Shown here piece after piece: positions 9,451 to 51,698 of a DNA stretch of 64,000 bases. Within the stretch, counting starts at the first letter, position 1; each line of letters opens with the position of its first letter. The notes under the pieces are model-generated. The model saw only the letters and a program-made list of their open reading frames with translations, was not told the origin of the DNA and searched no databases. The position numbers and the translations under genes were made by a program. This DNA is from Vampirovibrio chlorellavorus (GTDB lineage Bacteria > Cyanobacteriota > Vampirovibrionia > Vampirovibrionales > Vampirovibrionaceae): assembly GCA_903866275.1 (NCBI GenBank), contig CAIPMU010000012.1:6452-70451 (forward strand), written 5' to 3'.

Positions 9451-9743
9451 TAGCAGCTCAAGGGTTCGGCAGTCGTGTTGCCTGCTTTTGCGATGTAAGG
9501 GCAGGTTTTTCCGGTTCGATTCGTCAAATGTCCAGATGGGACAGGCTAATTCCTGTTGAAGTCCTGAATAACGGCGTGGGTAAAGCTTATTAATTTTAAA
9601 AAACAGGACTTGAAAGTTCCCAAAAATGGTTTCATAATACACACTAAGAGTTTCTGCGGATAGGTTGTTCAGTCTCACCAAGACAAGGCCTCGTTCAAGA
9701 AAACTCCTCGGTTAAATACTCTATAAGATGAGGCCATTTTCAA

Positions 9744-10070
9744 ATGGAAGACAAACAACTAGCCTGTACGACTTGCGGTACGGAGTTTACGTTTACGGGG
9801 GAAGAGCAGGAATTTTACTTCTCCAAGGGTTTCCAGGAACCCAAAAAATGCAAGCCTTGCCGTGATGCTGCCAAGCAAGCCCGTGGTGGCGGTGGCCGTA
9901 GTGGCGGTGGTTTTGGTGGCGGCGGCAGCTACGGCGGCGGCGCCCCTCGTCAGTTGTTCGATGCAGTTTGCGCCGGTTGCGGTGTGCAAACCCAGGTGCC
10001 TTTCCAGCCGAAAGGTTCCAAGCCGGTATACTGCCGTGAGTGCTTCCAGGCTAGCCGCTCTTACTACTAG
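9744..10070 (+). CDS. Double zinc-ribbon protein with Gly-rich linker
   Basis: CxxC-x19-CxxC, then a GGGGRSGGGFGGGGSYGGG linker, then CxxC-x17-CxxC. A strong terminator follows immediately. Confidence 0.6.
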   Translation: MEDKQLACTTCGTEFTFTGEEQEFYFSKGFQEPKKCKPCRDAAKQARGGGGRSGGGFGGGGSYGGGAPRQLFDAVCAGCGVQTQVPFQPKGSKPVYCRECFQASRSYY

Positions 10071-10342: not shown

Positions 10343-11242
10343 CTAACCGCTTTTCTGCTGGCTAACTTTTAAGGGCTTAACCACCGCGGCAATATTGTTG
10401 GCCACAATGGGATGGAGTTTCCAGGCCAAGCCTGTGAACTGCATGAGCTTGATGACACCATAGGTGACATCGATTTCCCACCAGCGGTGACCACTACGGG
10501 CTGCGCTGGGGTTGGCGTGATGGTTGTTGTGCCAGCCTTCGCCAAAGGTCACCAGAGCCACCCACCACAGGTTGCGGCTGTCGTCCTTGGTTTGATAGTT
10601 GCGGTAGCCGAACAGGTGGGTCACCGAGTTCACGAACCAGGTGGTGTGCCAAACATAGGCAATCCGCAGGAAACCACCCCAGATGGCCATTGAGATGGCG
10701 ACTTTTTGACCGCCAATGGCATAACCGATGCCCATTAACACGCCCAGAAAGGCCAGGTTAATCACTTCGAAGTACTTGGCCAGAAAACGGGCCCAGGGAT
10801 CGTTGGCCAGATCGGGAACGTAACGTTCCAGTGTGGCCTGATCTTTCGCGCAACCGTCACCGTACATCAGCCACAGAACGTGTGACCAGAGGAAGCTGAC
10901 TTTCGGGGAATGCGGGTCCATGGGCTGATCGGATTCGCGGTGGTGAATTCGGTGCGTGGCCGACCACCACAGGGGGTCGCCTTCCAGTGCCAGGGTACCG
11001 CACAGCATCAGGAACCATTTCACAATCTTGTGCGTTTTAAAGCTACGGTGGCTCAGGAGCCGGTGATAGCAAAGCGTTACGCCCAGGCATCCCGTCACGA
11101 ATGCCATGACCACGAATGAAATCAATCCAGGCAAGGTATACGTAAACGGCGCCGCAAGCGCTAATCCATGAACGACGATGAGAGCAATCAACATGGAAGG
11201 CCTGAACTGGTCACGGGTGGCTCTGGGGTGCAACAAGGGCAT
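10343..11242 (-). CDS. desC: Membrane acyl-lipid/acyl-CoA delta-9 fatty-acid desaturase
   Basis: Histidine boxes HRLLSH, HRIHH and HNNHHA, with several hydrophobic segments. Confidence 0.85.
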   Translation of the reverse strand: MPLLHPRATRDQFRPSMLIALIVVHGLALAAPFTYTLPGLISFVVMAFVTGCLGVTLCYHRLLSHRSFKTHKIVKWFLMLCGTLALEGDPLWWSATHRIHHRESDQPMDPHSPKVSFLWSHVLWLMYGDGCAKDQATLERYVPDLANDPWARFLAKYFEVINLAFLGVLMGIGYAIGGQKVAISMAIWGGFLRIAYVWHTTWFVNSVTHLFGYRNYQTKDDSRNLWWVALVTFGEGWHNNHHANPSAARSGHRWWEIDVTYGVIKLMQFTGLAWKLHPIVANNIAAVVKPLKVSQQKSG

Positions 11243-27850: not shown

Positions 27851-29125
27851 TTATGGCTTGAGGGGGCTTGTGGGTGTTTTTATGCGGGGTTTTGGGGATG
27901 ACTTGCCCATCGCTGGCGTCACTGGCGGGGCAAAAGGCGGGATGTTTCCATTGGGTGTGCTTGCGGGCAATGTGGTGAATGTTGCGTCAGTGGTGCTGGC
28001 AGGCAGTTGGGTGGTGGCGTTGAAAAGTTCTCCGGGCACAAAAAAGGTGATTCGGCTGCGGGGATTAAAGCCCAGTGCGAATTCAGCCTGCGTTTGATAT
28101 TCCGAACCGTCCGGCGTTTTAACCGAAGTAAGCCGAACGGTATAGCTTCGGCTGGCGGGAACGGCAGCGGTTACCTGCCCTTCAAAATGGCTCTCCTTGG
28201 GGAGAGGGCCGATGGCGTTCACCAGGTTGAAGCTGACCGATTGTCCAACCGTCAACTGGGCTTCCAGAATGGCCGTGGAGGGTGACAAAACCAGCGGGAG
28301 GCCAGGAGGTACCATTGGTATCGATGTTTCCAGCTCCGATTTCAACGGGGACCGGCGCTGAATCAGGTGAATCAGGTAAGTCACCAGCGGAGTGGCGTCC
28401 TTGTAGGTCAATAAGGCATGGGGGCGCAATTCAGTCTGCGGTACAGGCTCCCGAAAAAAATGGACTCTGGCCATTTTGCTCACCGATTGGGCCTCTTGTG
28501 GGCTGAGCTGATCCCGATCGGTAAACCCTTGCAACAAATGCGGTAGCATTTCGGCGGGTGGGACGGGTCCGGTAATGGCGTGGGCCAATGATTCATAGGC
28601 CTCGGCAAAGGTGATAGGCCGATCGGGATAGTAAAATCCGTGATCGGCTTCAAATGTCAGCAGTTTTTTCTCGCGGGCCACCTCGATGGGTACGTAGCCG
28701 GGATGCGTCAGTGGGACATCCCGGTACACCGGAAATTCACCAACCAGTTGCGTGTTGTGATGAATGGCGGCCACCAGTACCGCAGCCCATTCAGCGCGCG
28801 TGACGGGTTGCGTGCGCTCATTGGCATCGGGTGGAAATATTTTGTTGTTGACGAGCAGTTGCAGGGGTGAAAATGGAACCAGCGTGGCGCTCACGGGCAG
28901 TGGTGTGGCCGGGGTCTGCATAAAATTGGGCTTGGCCTGAGCGGCGGGTGGTATATTTTCCTGCGAGGGCTTGTGATGATGAAAAAATGGAAAGGCTTGC
29001 ACGGGGGCAACGCCCAGCCAAAGGGCCAGACTCAATGGCAGCCAGCGAGGCCTCCGGCCATTTCGCCCACAATTAAATCCAAAATTAAACTGGTAGAATC
29101 CACGAATTGTTTGCATCGGAAGCAT
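27851..29125 (-). CDS. Secreted protein with an S-layer-homology (SLH)-like domain
   Basis: Signal peptide (WLPLSLALWLGVAPVQA). SLH-like segment FPVYRDVPLTHPGYVPIEVAREKKLLTFEADHGFYYPDRPITFAEAYESLAHAI. Confidence 0.55.
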   Translation of the reverse strand: MLPMQTIRGFYQFNFGFNCGRNGRRPRWLPLSLALWLGVAPVQAFPFFHHHKPSQENIPPAAQAKPNFMQTPATPLPVSATLVPFSPLQLLVNNKIFPPDANERTQPVTRAEWAAVLVAAIHHNTQLVGEFPVYRDVPLTHPGYVPIEVAREKKLLTFEADHGFYYPDRPITFAEAYESLAHAITGPVPPAEMLPHLLQGFTDRDQLSPQEAQSVSKMARVHFFREPVPQTELRPHALLTYKDATPLVTYLIHLIQRRSPLKSELETSIPMVPPGLPLVLSPSTAILEAQLTVGQSVSFNLVNAIGPLPKESHFEGQVTAAVPASRSYTVRLTSVKTPDGSEYQTQAEFALGFNPRSRITFFVPGELFNATTQLPASTTDATFTTLPASTPNGNIPPFAPPVTPAMGKSSPKPRIKTPTSPLKP

Positions 29126-33821: not shown

Positions 33822-34113
33822 TGAAAATGGACCTATGGAATAAGGGTGCTCACTCAGGGGTAAAAATACCGCACCCGCCATTTATTGCTAAATAACGTCC
33901 CGGCTGACGGTCTTGCAGCACCCGCAGGTAAAGACTTATTGCTGCTACGTTCCCGTCCTGACAAGGTTCATCCGCCTTGCGCCGCGCAAGAATCAAACCG
34001 GTGGTGCGGTACTGGTTACTATAACACAACCCGCCCCAGAGACAACGTCATGATGCGTTCCGTTTGCCTGAAGCATTTTTAGCGATGAGGTTCGCCAACA
34101 CCGGTTCATGTGC

Positions 34114-38119: not shown

Positions 38120-38854
38120 ATGGTGCTGTGCTTGGGCTCGGTAGGCTTTGCGCTGGTTTTGGCTTCAGTTTCAGGATTGATTGTTTTGCATTTGCATCAC
38201 GCCGGTCTTTTCGGTTTAATGAGTCCCATGAATGAGCCTTTGCAGAATTCCGAACGTGCTGCCGGTCCAGCCTTGCTGGATAAAGCTCAGCTGTTTGAGG
38301 TGATTGTGATGGAAGGTGTGGATGCCTTCAATCATTATCGACGTCAAACGGGCTACATGCCGCTGGATTTGTCGGGGCTGGATTTCACAGCCAAGGATAT
38401 GGCGGGTATTAATTTAAGTAATACCAACTTGAGTGGTTGTAATTTCGATTTTGCGTATCTGGTTGAATCGACCCTGATTTTGGCCGATCTCTCCCGCTCC
38501 TCTTGCCGGGAAACAGACTTTTATATGGCGAATCTGGAAGAGGCTGACTTGCCCCACGCCAATCTGGAGCAGGCCAATTTTGCCAGTGCTTCGTTAAGTG
38601 AAGCAGTGCTGGAGGGCTGTCAGGCGCTTCGGGCTAATTTTCAGGATGCCGATTTAAGCCAGTGTAACTTTCGCAAAGCCAAACTGGCGGATGCCGATTT
38701 AACCGGGGCGAATGTAATGGGTGCAGATTTCCGGGATGCCGAACTGGAGTGGGCTATTCTGGAGGATGTGCGTTTTGATGCCAGCACCCAATGGGGCAAA
38801 AATCCGCCGCTTTTTGTGACCCAGACGCAAGCGGGACGTGACGGGTTAGATTAA
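38120..38854 (+). CDS. Pentapeptide-repeat protein
   Basis: Long run of A(D/N)LxX pentapeptides (ANLEEADLPHANLEQANFASASLSEAVL...). The N-terminal 33 aa are hydrophobic and may be a TM segment. Alternative start at 38219. Confidence 0.75.
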   Translation: MVLCLGSVGFALVLASVSGLIVLHLHHAGLFGLMSPMNEPLQNSERAAGPALLDKAQLFEVIVMEGVDAFNHYRRQTGYMPLDLSGLDFTAKDMAGINLSNTNLSGCNFDFAYLVESTLILADLSRSSCRETDFYMANLEEADLPHANLEQANFASASLSEAVLEGCQALRANFQDADLSQCNFRKAKLADADLTGANVMGADFRDAELEWAILEDVRFDASTQWGKNPPLFVTQTQAGRDGLD

Positions 38855-39532
38855 CCCCTTCGAAATGTTGAGGGTGCCTGAGTCATGATTCATGGTTTAG
38901 TCCATGTCTTCCGGCTTTTTTATGAGTTGTTTGATGGATTTAATTCTGACTTTTAAAAATGATGATTAAAAATAAAACATGGGGGGTATTACAGTGGAGC
39001 AAGATGGAAGTCAGTTAATAGGGCGTTGTTGGACATCGTCGCCACGGGAAAGATGCTGTTGAGGACAGTACCCGGGTTGCGAGCAGTTGCCATCGCAGGG
39101 ACAGAATCGGATGTTGTCCCGGTCAGTCTGGATGTCTGGTCAGTTATTGATAGGAGCCCGGATGACGCATGTGGAATCCTCAGGATCCTCAACTTCAGCA
39201 GGTCCCGCCTTGGGTCCACTGGCATTGGCTCTCAGGCGCCGATATTCCTCTGGCGCTGAGTGACAGTCAGGAGGATAGTCGCAGGACGCAGCTGGATCCG
39301 GTTCCCAAATGGGAGGCTTTGCGTTTAGTTGAACTGGAGCGGTACCATCGTCAGTTATTTATGTGGCGTCTACTCCAGATGCATTTTAAATTTAACGCCG
39401 TATTTGGCATGATACCTTTTGGGTGTGTCCAAGAATAAGGCATCGTTTTGAGTGATTCGAAGCCGCCCAAAAACTCCTGGAATTGTGCTTATTGCAATCA
39501 ATAGCAGACTAAAGATTTTGTTCAGTCAGATT

Positions 39533-39652
39533 GTGTTTATGATAGCCTGACATGGGTTTCAAATGAATCAATTTTTATGGGTAACATCATATCAGTGGAA
39601 CTTCACCATCACGGGATGGGTGGAGTGAGTATGAGGATTATTTTCAATGGGA
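39533..39652 (+). promoter_or_regulatory. Conserved promoter/leader module, copy 1
   Basis: GTGTTTATGATAGCCTGACATGGGTTTCAAATGAATCAA at 39533-39571 and ATGAGGATTATTTTCAATGGGA at 39631-39652 are near-identical to the module upstream of the 40691 ORF. Spacing to the CDS is the same (115 vs 113 nt). It contains the start of a 20-codon uORF (39631..39693, MRIIFNGTSFIFSGCWAECF) preceded by a GGTGGAG SD. Confidence 0.6.
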
Positions 39653-40177
39653 CTTCATTTATCTTCAGTGGTTGTTGGGCAGAATGCTTTTAATAGTCGT
39701 GGCTCTCGTCGTCAAACGATTGAAAAGCGCCCTGTGGCTCAGCTTCAGGCTTTACCACCTCAGGTGGTGCATGCCGAAACACAGCCTGTGTTGAAGAAAG
39801 ATCACATGCAACGTCGATTTCACTTTCTGGCAACGGCTGCCCCCAGCTTGAAGGACACCCCTAAGCGCCCGGAACCACCGGATGCAACATCGCGGGCTGC
39901 TGCTCAGCCAACCCGCTCCAAAAGTCGGCTGGTGATTATGGAAGATGCAACCGGTAAAATCTGGAATACCCACTTTCAGCTCTGGAATGACGCCAGCAAA
40001 ATTTTGTTGCACATGACCGAGGATGTCAAAAAGGCCTCTTCGCCTCTGGAAGCTGCGGGAATCTTCATGAAATCGGGCGTGGATCTGCATGTCACGGCAC
40101 TGGATGGCTCCGTTCATCAGTTTCGCAATACCTTGGACTTTATTGGGGAACTCCTCAAGAAGATGGGAGGTTCCTAA
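39647..40177 (+). CDS. Hypothetical 176-aa protein, paralog A of a tandem pair
   Basis: Ser/Thr/Gln/Arg-rich N-terminal 60 aa, then a predicted helical C-terminal domain. It has its own terminator, no SD at its ATG, and low-GC context. Confidence 0.5.
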   Translation: MGLHLSSVVVGQNAFNSRGSRRQTIEKRPVAQLQALPPQVVHAETQPVLKKDHMQRRFHFLATAAPSLKDTPKRPEPPDATSRAAAQPTRSKSRLVIMEDATGKIWNTHFQLWNDASKILLHMTEDVKKASSPLEAAGIFMKSGVDLHVTALDGSVHQFRNTLDFIGELLKKMGGS

Positions 40178-40286
40178 TACCCAGAATACAGGTCGATTTC
40201 AGGATTATTGTGCGGGACTTTAATTTTGAAATGGTCGAACTGTATTGAGCAACAATCTACTTCAATAGCGAGCAACGAGAATCAGC

Positions 40287-40316
40287 ACCCTCGGTATGGA
40301 CAGGCCGAGGGTTTTT
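40287..40316 (+). terminator. Rho-independent terminator after paralog A
   Basis: CCCTCGG-tatggacagg-CCGAGGG followed by TTTTTT. Confidence 0.75.
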
Positions 40317-40577
40317 TATGGGCGGGTTTATGCGCTGAGGGTGTCTTTATTGGGCTGATTGCTCTTCAGGGTTATTTTGAGAGGAATGGGTGAGAGTCAT
40401 CCCGAACATTGGACAAATTCCTCTAGAGATAATTTAAATTTAATATCATATTTGGAGCGGTTGCTTTGGTGTTTTCCAGGACCTCCTGAAACAGCGTGCT
40501 AGTGCCAATAGCGCTTGAACTCTGGCTGATGCGTCTAGTATATCCATCAATTTAATAAAAGCTTTGTCAAAAAAATC

Positions 40578-40695
40578 GTGTTTATGTTAGCCTGACAATG
40601 GTTTCATAAAACAATTAGGTTGAAAAAACAACATATAAGCGAATTTCCGCCATCTTTAAATGGCAGGAAATGGAATGAGGAGTATTTCAAATGGG
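40578..40695 (+). promoter_or_regulatory. Conserved promoter/leader module, copy 2
   Basis: GTGTTTATGTTAGCCTGACAATGGTTTCATAAAACAATT and ATGAGGAGTATTTCAAATGGGA. uORF 40675..40722 (MRSISNGNYDVIFAC) has an AGGAAA SD. Confidence 0.6.
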
Positions 40696-41296
40696 AACTA
40701 TGATGTCATTTTCGCCTGTTAGCAGCCTCACACCGGCGCAACCCAAAAAGGGGCTGCTTGCTGGTCGTCAGCAAAGTCCTCTTGTGAAGTCTTCGGTTCA
40801 ACGTCCGACGCAACGGATTCTGGTGGTTCGCGCCCAACAGGAACCCCAGGATAGCTTTAAACCCAAAGCAAAAGAAATTTTGACCCAGGAAGATATTGAT
40901 GCGGTTGTTTTGCCGACTCAGGAAGCTCTGAAAAACCTGCTTGAACAGGTAAAAGTGGATGAGAAGGTCAAAGAGAGTCTGGCCAAGGTCTATGAAGTGA
41001 TTCCGGAAGAGGCTACCAAGACAGCGGTCAGCTCATATGCAAAAACCGGTAAAAATACACTGGATAGCGCCCTTGAAATTTCCAGAGAAGCTATCAATGA
41101 AGCTGCGAACACCAAGTCGCCTGTGAATCTGGTGGGTACCTGGTGGAAAACGTTTACCAAAATGCACTCCCTTGCCCTGAAGACTGGTCTGGAGCATACC
41201 GGTACATCGGCTAAACTGATTAACGATGTATTCAAGTCCAAAAAAGCTGAAGCCCCCGCCGAAGCGCCCAAGGACGACGCTCCCAAAGGCGAATAA
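40691..41296 (+). CDS. Hypothetical 201-aa protein, paralog B of a tandem pair
   Basis: N-terminal S/T/Q/K-rich 60 aa, a helical middle, and an A/P/E/K-rich C-terminus (AEAPAEAPKDDAPKGE). Confidence 0.5.
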   Translation: MGTMMSFSPVSSLTPAQPKKGLLAGRQQSPLVKSSVQRPTQRILVVRAQQEPQDSFKPKAKEILTQEDIDAVVLPTQEALKNLLEQVKVDEKVKESLAKVYEVIPEEATKTAVSSYAKTGKNTLDSALEISREAINEAANTKSPVNLVGTWWKTFTKMHSLALKTGLEHTGTSAKLINDVFKSKKAEAPAEAPKDDAPKGE

Positions 41297-41362
41297 TTGA
41301 ATCATGAATGAGAGCAGGCACTCGGTCAAATGTACCGGGTGCCTGTAATCCTTCAACAGGTT

Positions 41363-41436
41363 CCACCCTGCAAAGGGTGTTTCTTCAGTATTCAGAGCTA
41401 AAATCCCTTTGGTTTGTGTGGGCCAAGGGTTTTTTG
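41363..41436 (+). terminator. Two tandem terminator hairpins after paralog B
   Basis: CACCCT-gcaa-AGGGTG followed by TTTCTTC, then CCCTTTGG-tttgtgtgggc-CCAAGGG followed by TTTTTT. Confidence 0.65.
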
Positions 41437-41503
41437 TATTTAGTTCATTCCGTTTGCCGGTTGGGCTGTGTGGCATTAACGGTTTGGTTTGCAGTGTGAG
41501 GGG

Positions 41504-41980
41504 TTATAAGCGGTAGTCGTAAACCGGTGCGGGCAACGATTCCTGCATCATTTCATTTTTCATATGGCTGGCAATGTAATACTGTTCATCCTCGGTTAAA
41601 TACGCCTCCGCCCACGGAAACAGGATTTCCTCATCGTTTCGTTTGGCCAGGTCCAGCAGGCCCCCCAGATTGACCACCTGATAGTAATACTCTCCGCGGG
41701 GTTCATCCACGTGCATCATAATCGCGTGTTCGGACACTTCCTCGATGCCCTCATGCACGGTCAGCATTCGGGCAATCAGGTCTTCATGTTCGCCAGTTTT
41801 GTGGATGTAGGGAAAAAACAGATTCTGTTCGATCTGAAGGTAGCTGTTTACCTCATCCAGAATGGTGCTCGATTTCTCCAGTCGCTGGTCATCGTTCAGC
41901 TTTTGATAGTTTTCACTCAAGTCCTGAATGACCCGACGGGCCAGATTGCGTTTTGCGGCGAGCACTTGCAACACGTCCAT
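41504..41980 (-). CDS. Hemerythrin-like (HHE cation-binding) domain protein
   Basis: Spaced His/Glu pattern (H..E..H...HE..EE..EH...H) in a 158-aa all-helical-looking protein. This is a tentative call. Confidence 0.4.
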   Translation of the reverse strand: MDVLQVLAAKRNLARRVIQDLSENYQKLNDDQRLEKSSTILDEVNSYLQIEQNLFFPYIHKTGEHEDLIARMLTVHEGIEEVSEHAIMMHVDEPRGEYYYQVVNLGGLLDLAKRNDEEILFPWAEAYLTEDEQYYIASHMKNEMMQESLPAPVYDYRL

Positions 41981-42432
41981 AACATCCCTCCCCTGGTAAG
42001 CGTTTTCATTCTAGTCTTTTGTCAACGTGGCAGCATCCCCTGAAAGACTATTTGTAAACAAGCCGCAACGCTTGGCTTTTTTTTCTTGTGCGAAGCTCGC
42101 CTTTTCATTTTAATCATGAGTAGAGTTAGCAGAAATGGAACGATTATCTTTGTCCTGCACTGCCTCACCGAACCGCCCCCTCTCTTTATCCCTGCGCCGT
42201 GTTGCCATCCAGCAACCTCACTTTGGGCAAAGACAACGGGTTATCTGCGCATCGGTGGTTCAGGCGATTCGGCAGGTTTGCTCAACGAGCGTGACGTTCC
42301 CCGGAATCTTTCTGAAATGAGTGCTGTTTGCCTGCGTTCTGAAATCAGGGACAACCATCAGTCATTTTTGTGCTCTGTCTGGTTTTGTTTTCATAGTTCT
42401 CGTGTAATCGCCGCCAAGGGTTTGCCTTCGTC

Positions 42433-44142
42433 ATGAATGTCACCGCACCGTATCTTGTGAATGCCCTGACTTTTGCACCACCTCCCCTGGTTTCAACCCC
42501 TCCTGTCAGCGCTGTGCCTGCGATTCGGTTGGCGCCGCCAATGGCCGGGCTGCATTCGCGAGATCATTTCAGTCGGTCGGTGAACCTGATGAACCCACCC
42601 TCCGATTCTCCTCCTGAGGCGACAGCGGGGCAAAAGTATATGCCCGTTCTGCCCGCTTTGGCTAAACCGTCGGGTTATCAATCCCTTCGTATCGTTTACA
42701 ATAACGATCCCCACGAAAAATTCAAGGCGCTACCTTATCTGGTCAGCGCCTTTCGTTTGGCGTCCGCGCAGGGGCAATTGGCCGGGCGGGATGTCCTGCG
42801 TTTAAACTCAGGCGATAACAACGTGGGCAAGGAGCCCGATGAGTGGGGCTTGCAGGTCAAGCTGCTCAATATGATGCGTTATGATGCGGTCACGATGGGG
42901 AACCATGAGCTGGATTTGGGCACTGCGAACTATGCTCGTGGGCTCCAGAATGCCAATTTTCCTACGCTGGTGTCCAACCTGAAGATTCCAGCGGGCAGCA
43001 GTCTGGCCCGACTTATTCAGCAAGGGAAATTACGCACCCTGCCCCAGATCCTGCAAACCCCGAAGGGGGTTTATGGCCTGATTGGCGTCACTGCGCCGGA
43101 TCTGAAATCGGTGGTCAGTAAGCAGGCCAAGCTGGAAGGGGTGGATCCACAACGCTTTGAAGAGACGGCGGCCAATGTGGCGGCTCAGGTGAACTGGCTG
43201 AAAAATCAGGGTGTCAATCAGGTGATTGTGCTCTCCCATATGGGTTATCCGCTGGAGCAAAAGCTGGCCCGCACGGTGCCGGGTATTGATATTATCGTGG
43301 GTGGTCATTCCCATGATGTCATTGATGGCATAACGCCCGGCAACAACTACCTGAATGGCCCTACCGGCGAGCCTGTCCTGTTGTTGCAGGGAGGCAAGAA
43401 CGCCCAGTATATGGGCGTGGCGGATGTGCTGTTTGACCCTCAGGGCCGACTGATCCCGCAGCAGAACAAGCTGTTTAGTCCGTTGATTGCTCCGCCGGAT
43501 GCCAAAGCCAAGGCCCTGCAGGATAGCATGTTGGGCATGCCTCGCAAGATTGCCGATGTGTTTCACAGTTACGACGCCAATGGGAATGAGTACCATCCCG
43601 ATCCGGTGGCGCAGTTTACCGCGGATACCATGCGCGCGCTGAGTGGCGCTGATATTGCCTTTGTGCGCTCCTCGGAGATCCGGGATAACTTTCAGCCCGG
43701 TGCTTTCACGGATCATGATCTCAAGGCCCTGATGCCCTTCACGGATCCCATTATCCGTCTCAACGTGACCGGACAGGAGATTTTGAACAGTCTCACCCGT
43801 TCCGCGCGAGGTATTGCCAATCGGGAAAGTCATCCGGGTATGTTGCACCCCTCCGGTTTGGCGGTGAGCCTGAACGGGACTGTGGGTCAGGTGCAGCAGG
43901 CCTTTGTCTTCAGTCGGGCCAATCAGCGGTGGGAACCCCTGGATCCGGCCAGGACCTACAGTGTGGCGATGGATGAATTCACCGTAAAAAACCATGAATT
44001 CCCCGATTTCGCACACCCGGACCGTGTGCAGTGGAATTCGAATCAGCCCTTGCGTAACTTTTTCAATTGGGGCTTGCGTCAGTCCGGTGCTCCGTTTCAG
44101 CCGGTTCACTTCCACGATGATGGTCGGCTGCAGGTGGTTTAA
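42433..44142 (+). CDS. Bifunctional metallophosphatase/5'-nucleotidase family protein
   Basis: N-terminal MPP motifs (NNDPHEK, GDNNVG, GNHELD, GGHSHD) and a C-terminal 5'-nucleotidase substrate-binding domain; 569 aa. Confidence 0.75.
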   Translation: MNVTAPYLVNALTFAPPPLVSTPPVSAVPAIRLAPPMAGLHSRDHFSRSVNLMNPPSDSPPEATAGQKYMPVLPALAKPSGYQSLRIVYNNDPHEKFKALPYLVSAFRLASAQGQLAGRDVLRLNSGDNNVGKEPDEWGLQVKLLNMMRYDAVTMGNHELDLGTANYARGLQNANFPTLVSNLKIPAGSSLARLIQQGKLRTLPQILQTPKGVYGLIGVTAPDLKSVVSKQAKLEGVDPQRFEETAANVAAQVNWLKNQGVNQVIVLSHMGYPLEQKLARTVPGIDIIVGGHSHDVIDGITPGNNYLNGPTGEPVLLLQGGKNAQYMGVADVLFDPQGRLIPQQNKLFSPLIAPPDAKAKALQDSMLGMPRKIADVFHSYDANGNEYHPDPVAQFTADTMRALSGADIAFVRSSEIRDNFQPGAFTDHDLKALMPFTDPIIRLNVTGQEILNSLTRSARGIANRESHPGMLHPSGLAVSLNGTVGQVQQAFVFSRANQRWEPLDPARTYSVAMDEFTVKNHEFPDFAHPDRVQWNSNQPLRNFFNWGLRQSGAPFQPVHFHDDGRLQVV

Positions 44143-46663: not shown

Positions 46664-47776
46664 TCAAGGGGCCGTTTGGTCGCCGGTTTGTGAGTCGATG
46701 CGTCGAGCGCGCTGTTGGTGTCGCTGGTGTTGCTCGTCCAGCTCAAAAATCACGCGAATGATGACATAAGCGGCATACAAAGCGCTCATGGAGAGCTCCC
46801 CGGTTGGATGCAAGCCCACCGATTGCTTTCCTGTGGCAGCGTGGAGAGGGGATTCATGGGCATTGGCTGGCGCCTCTGATTCAGCGCTGGCCGCCGGGGG
46901 ATTTGAATCGGGGCGAAGGGTGATGGCTTTTGGGTTGTCCTTCAGCACGAAGCTGAGATCGATGTGTCCGGCGCCGCCCAGCCCGGTGACGACTTCCTGA
47001 GCAATGGCGGCTGTAAATGCTGTCGCGATGGGTTCATGTTGAACAATGGCGTGCAACGGGGCTCGGCCTTGCGAGCTGAGGGTGATTCTAAATTGCCCCA
47101 GTGTTAAGGTTTCAATGAACAATGCCAGTTGTTCACCGGCTGTGCCAGCGGATTCGCCGCCTTCTCCGCTTCCGGCCGCTTCCTGTCTCAGGGAAAAGGC
47201 TTGCGGGGGATGCAGGGGGTAAGGCAGGTAAAGGTGGATGGCCGCATGCAAGGCCTGACCCGGTGATTGCTTGCTCTGGGCGACCAGTTCACTCAAGGTT
47301 CCGAGGAGCTCTCCCAGTTGGCCGGGGTGTCCGCCGCTCCCTCCGCCTGCGGATTGCAGCAGTTTTAGCAGTTTTTCCCGAGCTTCATCAACGTGGGTGA
47401 GCAGGGCGGCTTGCAGCTCATTCAGGGGGACAGGCGTTTCCGTTTGTAGCAGGGCTTCTAACAGTTCTGGTAATACTGTTTTGGCCATTGTCGGGTTCTC
47501 ATTGGCCAGCATGGCCAGTAGCTGGGCCAGTTCTTTGGGCAGCTTTAACAGGTTCCTCAACAACTGCAGGAGTTGTCCGGGCTGAAGGGCCAGTTCTGCA
47601 TTCAGGGCAGGCGTCAAACTTCCTGTGGGTAGCGCGTGATGCTCCGCTGATGAAGGTTGGTTGGCTGTATGCGGTTCTCCGGACGTACTCAGCGGCTCGC
47701 CCGATGTCGCTCCACGCGATGTGGCAATGGGGTTGGGCTGACCATTGGGTCTGAAGTTGGGGCCAATTTGAGTCAC
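46664..47776 (-). CDS. Protein with a C-terminal FliK-like Flg_hook domain, otherwise low-complexity
   Basis: LTLGQFRITLSSQGRAPLHAIVQHEPIATAFTAAIAQEVVTGLGGAGHIDLSF resembles the hook-length-control FliK C-terminal domain (LGxVxIxL...). I see no other flagellar genes in the window. Confidence 0.45.
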   Translation of the reverse strand: MTQIGPNFRPNGQPNPIATSRGATSGEPLSTSGEPHTANQPSSAEHHALPTGSLTPALNAELALQPGQLLQLLRNLLKLPKELAQLLAMLANENPTMAKTVLPELLEALLQTETPVPLNELQAALLTHVDEAREKLLKLLQSAGGGSGGHPGQLGELLGTLSELVAQSKQSPGQALHAAIHLYLPYPLHPPQAFSLRQEAAGSGEGGESAGTAGEQLALFIETLTLGQFRITLSSQGRAPLHAIVQHEPIATAFTAAIAQEVVTGLGGAGHIDLSFVLKDNPKAITLRPDSNPPAASAESEAPANAHESPLHAATGKQSVGLHPTGELSMSALYAAYVIIRVIFELDEQHQRHQQRARRIDSQTGDQTAP

Positions 47777-48929: not shown

Positions 48930-51698
48930 CTATAAGATTGCAAAGTCCCCTTGATTGACCGGTGTTGGTGTTTCAGCGGGTACAGCCGGTACAAATTCTG
49001 AAACGGGTACCTTTACTCCGCCGATGTTGATAGATTCAACGTCACTGAAAATGACGGTATCCGTACCATTCACCGCAATGAAAGTCTTGCCTTGGTCATT
49101 GGAGGTGATTTTCCAATCCTGGATAGTTCCATTCAGATCAATGCTGTCATCGCCAGCGCCACCATTAAAGAGATAATTGTTATGATCGCCTGCTGATACG
49201 ATGACTGTATCACTATTAGAGCCACCGGTAATCACCCCAGTATTACCAGAACCACCATTCAGGCCAGTAATCGTCTCTGTGGACAGCGCGCTGTTATTTG
49301 AATTGAACGTGTTATCTGCACCGCCCAGGTTGACTTGGTCGTTATTAACAAGACGTGCGCGATTTGAATTACCATCAATGGTCACGACACCCGTATTGGC
49401 TTGGGCCCGCACTTCGTTATTACTGCCTGTAATAGTGACAGGGCCAGCGTTATTTTTGGCTATATTTTTACCATTGGTGTTAGTCTGTGCAACGCTATAG
49501 TAACCCATGGCCTTGTTATTGCCACCGTTACTCGCTTGAACAACAGAGGGCAATTGAGCAACAGAGGGCGAGTTTGTTACTGGTGTTGTGAATGTGGTGA
49601 ATTTGGATGACCCGTCAGTCAAAGTTTGTTCGTCATTTGCGAATTGCGGAGTGTTGATGGTTGGTTGATTTGCACCAATTGGTGGCTGATCTGCGCCAGT
49701 CGGCAGGGGTGCTTCTGTTGTGACCTGGGTTTGTTCTTGAGGGACGTTTGAACGGACAAACGGATTTGCTTTGTCTGTTGTAGGCCCTGCCACCGTGCTT
49801 CCTCCGGTAGTACTGAATGGGCTTACTGTTGGCGCAGCGGTATAAACGTCATCAAAAGTGGTTCCAGGGAGCACGCCACCGTTCTCTGCCTGTTTATTTT
49901 TTAGGTCGGCCTCAATCTGTGCAGGCGTGAATCCGTGTTGTTTCTCATAGCCTGCTATTGCGGTCACCTGAGGTGCTGCAAAAGAAGTGGAACGACCTAC
50001 TGCCACGATATCACCAGGTCCAGAGTCATTGTTGAGATGATTATTCTCGTCTGCAGATGCCACTGTAACGGCGGAGTCGGGAGCGAGTTGATTGGGCTTG
50101 TCAGGCCCAAAGTTGTCGGCTGCTACAACCACGGGAATGCCTAGAGTGGTTAGTTGATCGATTTGTTCCTGTACCTTTTTTGATTGTGGAGTTTGTGATG
50201 ATTGTTCCTGCGATAGGTTAACCGCATCGACGCTGTTAGGATCTTGCTTAGCTCGTGTCGCAATTTTACCCAGTGCATCGGCGATCACTTGCGTTCTATT
50301 GCTGTCATTGCCGACATTGACGTTGACATCATGAACCTTTATTTTGACTTTTGCCTCTAAATTGGGCTGATTGCCCCCTTTCTGAATGATACTGCTGACA
50401 GTTTCACCGTGGTTGAAACCCTCACCATTCTGGTTTTGCTGCCCAGGGTTCTTGAGATCGGGGTTAAAATCATCGACCACAAAAACATCAACAGGGTCAG
50501 GTTTGTTAACGACACCGTTATTTGTTTGAGCAACCTGGGTTTGCTCTTGGGTAACGTTTGGACTGACAAAAGGGTTTGCCTTGTCTGCGCCAGGCTTCAG
50601 GCCAGCTTGGGTGAGGGAGGTTTGAGGCGCTTGCAGTGCTTCACCACCGGCCAATAGAGCTTTATTGACTCCCTCACTGGCGCCGTTTTTATCACCATAG
50701 AAACCCGCTTGTGCTCCCTTAAAACCGGCTTGTGCGCCTTGAAGCCCTTTTTGCACGCCTTCAGGTGAGCCAATAATGCCTGCAACAACGCCACTTGAGC
50801 CAGCAGCGGCTCCGATTGCGCCAGAAAGAGCGCCCGCGATGGATCCTGAAACTCCAGCTACTGAACCTTCAGCACCAGAAATAGCACCTTCGATGGACCC
50901 TGCAGCCAAAGCGGCCTGGCCTGCGGCGGCGGAAGCCAAAGAGGTATTCAGAGCATCTCCTGAATATGCTGCCGCAGCTGCGCCTACGGCAGCACCTACA
51001 GCGCCCTGAGCTGCACCTATGGCGCCCTGACCAGGAGCTCCCCCAAAGGCCACGTTGTCACCGTGTTGATTGGTTTGTTTGACTTGGGTGACACCTACAG
51101 CCGTGTTTGTTCCATCAACGTTGCTTTGAGAACCTTGACCTGCGCTCCAGAGTACGTTCTCACCAGAATGAGTGTCTTGTGCGGCGATACCGATATTATT
51201 CGCTTTATTAGCGCCAACAGTCGTGCTCTGAGTTAAGTTTCCGACCTTAGAAGCTCTATTATCACCATTGAAATTTGCTTGACCACCCACCCCAGCATCT
51301 TGCAGGGTATTGGCACCATGCTGGTTAAATTGCGTTCCTGATCCAATGAGGGCTGCGGAATTTTCGCCCGTGTGATTGCCTTGGAGGCCAGATCCAGTTT
51401 GAAGAAGCGTGTTTTTACCATCCGCATTTTCCTGTAAGGCCTTTGCGACTTGAGCGCCACTATTGGCACCTGTTTGGTTCTTTTGAATCAAATAGGAACC
51501 TGCCCCCAGTTGAGCAGCCTTATTATCACCCTGAGTGTCTTTTTGGGTCGTGACTTGCGCAGGCTTGGGACTTGGGGAGCTGTTGACTGGAACTTGTGAC
51601 GGATTCGAAGCCGGCTTTTCTGTGGGTGCTTGTTTGACCGTTTGTTTTTTATGATGGGGTGCTGGGGTTGGTGTAGCTCCAATTCCAGAAATACTCAT
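48930..51698 (-). CDS. 922-aa secreted multi-domain protein: Gly/Ala-rich repeats, subtilisin-like (S8) domain, C-terminal RTX/hemolysin-type Ca-binding repeats; probable T1SS substrate
   Basis: No N-terminal signal peptide. An S8-like catalytic set is present: D (VFVVDDFNP), H (NHGETV), N (VVVAADNFG) and S (GRSTSFAAPQV). The C-terminus has GGxGxD-type repeats (GGSGNTGVITGGSNSDTVIV...NGGAGDDSIDLNG). Confidence 0.65.
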   Translation of the reverse strand: MSISGIGATPTPAPHHKKQTVKQAPTEKPASNPSQVPVNSSPSPKPAQVTTQKDTQGDNKAAQLGAGSYLIQKNQTGANSGAQVAKALQENADGKNTLLQTGSGLQGNHTGENSAALIGSGTQFNQHGANTLQDAGVGGQANFNGDNRASKVGNLTQSTTVGANKANNIGIAAQDTHSGENVLWSAGQGSQSNVDGTNTAVGVTQVKQTNQHGDNVAFGGAPGQGAIGAAQGAVGAAVGAAAAAYSGDALNTSLASAAAGQAALAAGSIEGAISGAEGSVAGVSGSIAGALSGAIGAAAGSSGVVAGIIGSPEGVQKGLQGAQAGFKGAQAGFYGDKNGASEGVNKALLAGGEALQAPQTSLTQAGLKPGADKANPFVSPNVTQEQTQVAQTNNGVVNKPDPVDVFVVDDFNPDLKNPGQQNQNGEGFNHGETVSSIIQKGGNQPNLEAKVKIKVHDVNVNVGNDSNRTQVIADALGKIATRAKQDPNSVDAVNLSQEQSSQTPQSKKVQEQIDQLTTLGIPVVVAADNFGPDKPNQLAPDSAVTVASADENNHLNNDSGPGDIVAVGRSTSFAAPQVTAIAGYEKQHGFTPAQIEADLKNKQAENGGVLPGTTFDDVYTAAPTVSPFSTTGGSTVAGPTTDKANPFVRSNVPQEQTQVTTEAPLPTGADQPPIGANQPTINTPQFANDEQTLTDGSSKFTTFTTPVTNSPSVAQLPSVVQASNGGNNKAMGYYSVAQTNTNGKNIAKNNAGPVTITGSNNEVRAQANTGVVTIDGNSNRARLVNNDQVNLGGADNTFNSNNSALSTETITGLNGGSGNTGVITGGSNSDTVIVSAGDHNNYLFNGGAGDDSIDLNGTIQDWKITSNDQGKTFIAVNGTDTVIFSDVESINIGGVKVPVSEFVPAVPAETPTPVNQGDFAIL

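Follow-up and report, generated by a model that had tools for sequence, protein, structure and literature searches.

Gene A (39647..40177, forward strand) and gene B (40691..41296, forward strand) form a tandem pair of orphan genes, of 176 and 201 amino acids (aa), in Vampirovibrio chlorellavorus (Cyanobacteriota; assembly GCA_903866275.1, contig CAIPMU010000012.1). They lie in a stretch of 64,000 nucleotides (nt), hereafter the window, in whose positions all coordinates are given unless another locus is named. A first-pass annotation of the window had described nearly identical sequence blocks upstream of the two genes, and these were recovered here: block 1, GTGTTTATG[A/T]TAGCCTGACA, stands at 39533-39552 before gene A and at 40578-40597 before gene B, and block 2, ATGAGGA.TATTT..AATGGGA, at 39631-39652 and 40675-40696. 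Each block has two matches and none elsewhere in the 64-kb window at up to three mismatches, with 0.01 expected by chance. Block 1 stands 114 nt from the main ATG in gene A and 113 nt from it in gene B, so that the spacing is near-equal as first reported, with a small correction to the figures given then (115 and 113 nt). Other parts of that description also stand, namely the low GC content of the region (45-49% vs ~55% in the surrounding DNA), the separate termination of the two genes, each followed by its own intrinsic terminator, and the flanking pentapeptide-repeat and hemerythrin-like genes, the latter a weak match. A conserved open reading frame (ORF) for an orphan protein of 89 aa (ORF89, 39169-39438) also intervenes between the pentapeptide-repeat gene and gene A.

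A fully syntenic locus from a second species, recovered from a lake metagenome (L001; loci L002, L005, and L028 come from this species as well), has the gene order purF-purL, pentapeptide-repeat gene, ORF89, A, B, hemerythrin-like gene, 5'-nucleotidase, M23. The comparisons of four leaders below therefore comprise window A, window B, L001 A, and L001 B. The similarity between the two units reaches further than first described: it begins at 39383 and 40434, and on the downstream side it includes both terminators. In a four-way alignment and with a repeat finder, it was found to start in the final ~55 nt of ORF89, to continue across the promoter and leader, and to resume in the 3' untranslated region (UTR) and terminator. 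The 3' end of ORF89 (39383..39438, forward), where the first repeat unit starts, aligns at an offset of 1048 nt with a remnant copy at 40434..40480 (forward), where the second unit starts. At the other end, the gene A terminator and its conserved 3'UTR (40248..40322, forward; stem 40287-40312, T-run to 40318, from the terminator scan) are matched by a homologous gene B terminator (41406..41435, forward; stem 41406-41429). Thus, three non-coding anchors are collinear, at offsets of 1048, 1045/1044, and 1118 nt. The third of these is accounted for by 1044 nt plus the 75-nt difference in coding sequence (CDS) length, and in both genes the terminator stem begins 110 nt past the stop codon. Collinearity was therefore found on both sides of the CDS, as tandem duplication requires. 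Global alignment scores against shuffles were highest for the leader (z 11.7-12.4), with the upstream stretch at 4.2, the 3'UTR at 3.0-6.0, and the CDS nucleotide alignments of A against B at 2.7 and 5.8; the comparison of leader with CDS that had been proposed as a check thus shows the leader to be far better preserved.

The proteins, by contrast with the leaders, have diverged almost completely, as had been claimed: BLASTP of protein A against protein B found no similarity, and identity is ~20%. Neither protein matched a family in Pfam, NCBIfam, PADLOC, or PDB sequences. Among 5.8 billion proteins, homologs of gene A fell in one cluster (P0004; 53% BLASTP identity, 62% in the MAFFT alignment) and those of gene B in another (P0002; 67% BLASTP identity, ~72% in MAFFT and codon alignments), and an exhaustive HMMER search of 1.84 billion representatives with a gene B profile returned its own cluster only, without retrieving gene A. 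Profile comparison with hhalign aligned an N-terminal region, RQ..QRP..VVRAQQ.P, at E=0.038, and Smith-Waterman alignment against shuffles gave a collinear, near-full-length match for the L001 pair (p=0.001) and p=0.04-0.15 for the other pairs. AlphaFold2 (AF2) models were too poor for a fold comparison (pLDDT 46 for protein A and 50 for protein B); both show the first 64-92 residues as disordered and the C-terminal domain as helical. In protein A, the disordered part covers the N-terminal half and is followed by a C-terminal helical hairpin, and in protein B it covers the N-terminal ~64 aa. The products would be small, cytoplasmic, probably abundant, condition-specific proteins. Both start with Met-Gly in a MGxxxS pattern, MGLHLS in A (39647-39664) and MGTMMS in B (40691-40708), with MGLLIS and MGTMML in the respective L001 proteins, and regions rich in S/T/Q/R/P and predicted to be disordered follow in both. 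As pure speculation, such starts are superficially like eukaryotic N-myristoylation or transit-peptide features of secreted effectors.

The failure of BLASTP to relate the two proteins, and of the gene B profile to retrieve gene A among 1.84 billion proteins, is what would be expected if A and B were not paralogs at all, the regulatory module alone having been copied before an unrelated gene or homogenised by gene conversion. The ORF89-tail stretch upstream of the promoter gives a further hint in that direction, as it holds nine genome-specific shared substitutions vs four paralog-specific ones, which may reflect some local conversion. The leader, unlike that stretch, has 20 paralog-specific and two genome-specific sites and hence no sign of recent conversion. 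Moreover, the homology continues 3' of the CDS, in 3'UTRs and terminators with equal stop-to-stem distances; the CDS nucleotide alignments score above shuffles; and the protein alignment is collinear (p=0.001 for the L001 pair). We consider such a capture of promoter and leader very unlikely. Because of the collinear anchors, the 110-nt spacing, the alignment z-scores, and the protein alignments, A and B are regarded as homologs by position and, very probably, as true paralogs with CDSs that have decayed to ~20% identity.

The four leaders also date the duplication. From promoter to ATG, ~155 columns could be aligned, of which 80 are invariant, 20 paralog-specific, two genome-specific, and none cross-patterned; with 20 paralog-specific columns against two genome-specific ones, the duplication predates speciation and the leaders have not been homogenised. 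Synonymous sites between the species are near saturation (proportion of synonymous differences, pS, 0.54-0.77), with only 33-57% of fourfold sites identical. Since so many leader columns are invariant despite this saturation, purifying selection must hold the shared positions, which agrees with the earlier argument for selection on the leader rather than a recent duplication. Leader B is 86-93% identical between the species vs 72% for the gene B CDS. The coding sequences are under selection as well: the ratio of non-synonymous to synonymous substitution rates (dN/dS) is 0.15 for gene B and 0.08 for ORF89, and gene A has a proportion of non-synonymous differences (pN) of 0.24 vs a pS of 0.77. 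Non-synonymous changes being far below synonymous ones in every gene compared, A, B, and ORF89 included, these three are real, if fast-evolving, proteins, with a dN of 0.17-0.28 for the fast-evolving genes at the locus vs 0.04-0.06 for their neighbors.

A search of other genomes for the motif and for homologs had been suggested at the outset. The leaders and both genes are kept in one further species, and motif matches elsewhere were due to chance: a scan for block 1 of representative genome contigs, which do not include the window's own genome, gave only two unrelated matches, in an AT-rich metagenome-assembled genome (MAG) and a Balneolales MAG, and a scan of JGI metagenomes for GGTTTYA-N65-95-ATGAGGNNNATTTNNAATGG gave 18 loci, all of which are low in GC, lie in unrelated contexts, and match by chance. 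Neither A nor B is present at the locus in more distant relatives, where the hemerythrin-like gene has the 5'-nucleotidase gene on one side and a ketoacyl synthase gene on the other; the A-B pair is therefore restricted to the two known species. A and B are fast-evolving orphans known from two species only.

Block 1 is best read as a putative sigma-70-type extended -10 promoter element. Its core in the four copies (TGATAGCCT, TGTTAGCCT, TGCTAGCCT, and TGTTAGATT) fits TGnTAGnnT throughout, and all four copies keep the positions constrained in an extended -10 element (TGnTAnnnT, with constraint on TG, T-12, A-11, and T-7). Variation is confined to unconstrained positions of TGnTAnnnT, with A/T/C/T at -13 and CC/CC/CC/AT at -9/-8. 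In the window, the candidate elements are TG-A-TAGCCT at 39540..39548 (forward), the core of block 1 before gene A, and TG-T-TAGCCT at 40585..40593 (forward) before gene B, both placed by the four-leader alignment. A -35 hexamer, TTGTCA, lies 18 nt upstream of the -10 element in three of the four copies, with TGTTCA in its place in window A and an A/T-rich stretch before it. For promoter B, this predicted -35 hexamer is at 40564..40569 (forward) and is kept in L001 A and B; for promoter A, a weak -35-like region (TTTGTTCAG, 39517..39525, forward) takes the place in the alignment where the three other leaders have TTGTCA. Predicted transcription start sites (TSSs) at ~39555 and ~40600 would give 5'UTRs of ~92 nt that open with a conserved GGTTTYA. 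The arrangement resembles known extended -10 (TGn) sigma-70 promoters in the TG one base upstream of TAnnnT, in the confinement of variation to free positions, and in the TTGTCA at 18 nt in three copies; it differs in that TAGCCT is a weak match to TATAAT, which may not be the consensus of this organism. Readings of block 1 as a Pho-box, HLR1, NtcA, or Fur site were rejected, none fitting all four copies. A TTGTCA-N23-TGACAA dyad around the -10 element of B occurs in the B copies only, and no claim is drawn from it.

Within the leader, a hairpin, H1, occupies the same position in all four copies. In leader A it is formed by CUUCACCAUC-ACGG-GAUGGGUGGAG at 39601..39625 (forward) and in leader B by AUUUCCGCCAU-CUUUAA-AUGGCAGGAAAU at 40643..40671 (forward). 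Its folding energies in window A, window B, L001 A, and L001 B are -12.9, -12.5, -8.3, and -10.2 kcal/mol (z -2.8, -3.2, -1.1, and -3.4); the CCAU/AUGG core is invariant and the loops differ, and in the L001 B ortholog the stem is kept with a changed loop. H1 would probably act as an mRNA-stabilising or protein-binding element. Its retention in four copies, with the stem kept where the loop has changed, together with a predicted 5'UTR as long as ~92 nt and a leader B that is ~90% conserved over ~190 nt despite saturated synonymous divergence, could also suggest that the 5'UTR is a structured cis-regulatory RNA (a thermosensor, a riboswitch, or a leader responsive to a small RNA, sRNA, or to a protein) inherited by both paralogs. 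A third gene (9744-10070) that has two leader boxes in common with A and B (local alignment p ~0.006-0.01) points the same way. Paralogous 5'UTRs are retained in this manner in the 'cold box' leaders of Escherichia coli cspA/B/G/I. Staphylococcus aureus cspB and cspC are described as carrying paralogous RNA thermoswitches in their 5'UTRs (PMC8034633). Such csp paralogs are the nearest analogues known, and the likeness lies in duplicated monocistronic genes with strong Shine-Dalgarno (SD) sequences and a long homologous 5'UTR and initiation region controlling both copies. The csp CDSs, however, are highly conserved too, whereas those of A and B have almost wholly diverged, and the csp UTRs have demonstrated alternative structures, whereas here one hairpin is conserved and folding found no alternative fold.

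Other RNA-level evidence speaks against a structured regulatory leader. Folding the leader RNA for alternative structures, as the first-pass annotation had recommended, revealed none: whole-leader folding against shuffles gave no significant global fold (z -0.8, -1.9, +0.25, and -0.6), and Rfam searches of 39000-41600, even at a permissive threshold (E<=10), returned only two chance matches to snoRNA models (E 1.4-7.4). H1 is the sole structure shared in the alifold consensus, where the covariation term is 0, a value of low power with four sequences. No helix occludes the SD consistently across the A and B leaders. L001 leader A tolerates a ~50-nt insertion (L001 5857-5905) that repeats the GGTTTYAT box (GGTTTTATAAA ... 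GGTTTCATCAA), and H1 is weakened in the same leader. The scan of JGI metagenomes for the motif likewise gave chance matches only. We therefore hold it unlikely that the 5'UTR is a structured regulatory RNA of this kind.

Block 2 is the translation initiation region, made up of an invariant GAGGA, an A/U-rich spacer of 8-9 nt, and ATG-GGA. The main ATGs had been described as lacking an SD sequence, which is wrong: GAGGA at 39633..39637 (forward) lies 9 nt before the gene A start at 39647, and GAGGAG at 40677..40682 (forward), with AGGAG at 40678-40682, lies 8 nt before the gene B start at 40691, and both are kept in the four leaders. The +1-frame upstream ORFs (uORFs) reported to open at ATGAGG do exist in the sequence, with 20 codons before gene A (39631..39693, forward) and 15 codons before gene B (40675..40722, forward); the former is probably not functional, its length, stop, and SD not being conserved in L001, and the function of the latter is doubtful. 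It might be proposed that the upstream ATG opens a translated regulatory uORF, or serves as a decoy start, and that out-of-frame reading through the main ATG tunes or blocks translation of A and B. All four leaders indeed have the upstream ATG, as does gene 9744 in an initiation region that resembles theirs. A purine-rich, SD-like run (GGUGGAG, CAGGAAA) precedes it by 5-6 nt in both window copies. The SD reported before the uORF thus holds for the window copies as a purine-rich run, but this run is the 3' arm of H1 there, and SD-like sequence is weak in L001 B and absent before the upstream ATG in L001 leader A and in gene 9744, so that the uORF has no conserved ribosome-binding site of its own. 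In addition, the strong SD follows the uORF ATG, at a spacing that suits the main ATG.

The reading frames of these uORFs give little more. Their lengths in window A, window B, L001 A, and L001 B are 20, 15, 51, and 15 codons, and the position of the stop is not conserved between the A orthologs. In B, the uORF is equally long in the two species, its stop is kept as TAG->TAA, and just past that stop, at ~40724, high conservation breaks off; the four nucleotide differences between the species cause one amino-acid change in the uORF frame vs three in the main frame, although four substitutions are too few for a test of frame. The peptides are similar only where the SD and the main N-terminus (MGL..SS..VGQN in the main frame) constrain the nucleotides, and no conservation of length, stop, or peptide relative to a regulatory structure was found. 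The terminator scan found no terminator or antiterminator between uORF and CDS, and the overlap of the uORF with the CDS itself rules out an attenuator of the terminator-antiterminator kind. Leader-peptide and uORF control of the trp, erm, cat, and secM type is similar in that a short ORF starts before the main start, preceded by purines in the window copies. It differs in that neither an SD, a length, and a stop of the uORF nor regulatory codons are conserved here, and in that the uORF overlaps the CDS, instead of standing before a terminator or an SD-sequestering helix, and has its ATG inside the main SD region. The suggestion of a leader-peptide, attenuation, or translational coupling mechanism thus did not hold up, as the main SD is conserved, the SD, length, and stop of the uORF are not, and neither alternative structures nor an Rfam family were found. 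The uORF ATG is that of the ATGAGGA in the main SD region and probably opens no regulatory leader peptide, and translational control through it seems to us quite improbable.

What we consider the probable explanation is that A and B are old, co-regulated tandem paralogs whose promoter and leader have been retained under purifying selection while the proteins drifted. A unit of ~1.05 kb, comprising the last ~55 nt of ORF89, the predicted promoter, a predicted ~92-nt 5'UTR, the CDS, a 110-nt 3'UTR, and the terminator, was duplicated in tandem before the split of the two known species of the lineage. Both copies have stayed independent monocistronic genes for small, fast-evolving, lineage-restricted proteins. 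The cis module retained in each consists of the putative sigma-70-type extended -10 promoter, the predicted GGTTTYA start-of-transcript box, H1, and the A/U-rich initiation region with its strong SD. It would likely place both paralogs under common transcriptional and translational control, so that one condition would call up both, probably in large amounts.

Several observations weigh against this explanation. At the protein level, the statistical support for homology between A and B is weak for three pairs out of four. Leader A is only ~66% identical between the species at aligned sites and carries the 50-nt insertion in L001, and other intergenic regions of the species pair have islands of ~85% identity too, so that leader B is the best conserved of them and not an outlier. 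Promoter, TSS, and co-expression of A and B are all inferred from sequence. The -35 region of promoter A is poor, an alternative -10 is possible at CATAAA/TATAAA ~20 nt downstream, and a simple sigma-70 promoter scan called neither promoter, because TAGCCT matches TATAAT at only three of six positions. As two species are known, covariation in H1 is beyond assessment with four leaders.

Gene 9744-10070 encodes a 108-aa, Gly-rich treble-clef zinc-ribbon protein (zf_Tbcl) and adjoins a fatty-acid desaturase gene (10343-11242, reverse strand). In the region 9620-10070, it is preceded by AATGGTTTCATAATACA, 16 of 17 positions of which are identical to leader B, and by an initiation region, ATGAGGCCATTTTCAAATGG, with the same SD-embedded ATG; the local alignment with the leaders may reflect a shared regulon or coincidence. 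A doubtful further possibility is that the promoter-proximal box, H1, and ATGAGGA-N-ATTT-N-AAATGG together make up an undescribed leader for post-transcriptional control, responsive for example to a protein or to temperature, with the SD-embedded AUG as a decoy start. If this were true, A, B, and possibly the zinc-ribbon gene by the desaturase would belong to a small stress regulon, recognisable by the leader, of a freshwater lineage that is still uncultured.

The gene A 3'UTR and terminator (40248-40322) are 97-100% identical to L001, terminator loop included, a level that no nearby CDS reaches; for the paralogous gene B 3'UTR, identity is only 42-67%. This segment may give rise to an sRNA from the 3'UTR or may bind a protein, and it could be a second regulatory RNA at the locus. 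Its complementarity to the leaders was no better than that of shuffles. Another conserved non-coding island lies between the pentapeptide-repeat gene and ORF89 (38931-39078; 80-93% identical to L001 5260-5400) and holds a hairpin, CGGG..GCUGU-UGAGGA-ACAG..CCCG, and a tiny ORF, ATGGAAGTCAGTTAA; it had no Rfam match in 38800-39250 at permissive E, and its fold z-scores were not significant. On the other side of the pair, more distant relatives of window positions 41504-44142 (L029-L031) show the hemerythrin-like gene and a divergent 5'-nucleotidase gene to be a conserved pair, flanked by ketoacyl synthase and methyltransferase genes, and the pentapeptide-ORF89-A-B block to be specific to the lineage of the window. 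The hemerythrin-like protein has a weak NCBIfam match to PA2171, a 'ribosome-binding persister protein' (E 0.003). Elsewhere in the window, a bacterial small signal recognition particle (SRP) RNA at 33899-33998 (reverse strand; 58.6 bits) is the sole Rfam family above its gathering score, and a tRNA search of the window found none. Three long ORFs on the reverse strand, at 48930-51698, 27851-29125, and 46664-47776 (922, 424, and 370 aa), had no Pfam match at E<=1e-5.

The locus is an ordinary case of regulatory sequence retained after duplication, and the proposed mechanism of a uORF with a main start lacking an SD is not supported; a new mechanism would be at hand only if the leader acts at the RNA level. 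As such, it shows cleanly, in a natural case, how regulatory DNA and RNA (promoter, 5'UTR hairpin, and ribosome-binding site) can outlast the CDS after duplication, with the proteins now below detection by BLAST and HMMER. It calls for caution in the detection of paralogs, as synteny of the non-coding flanks reveals homology that protein searches miss, and it offers a way to find orphan genes under common regulation in bacteria that are uncultured.

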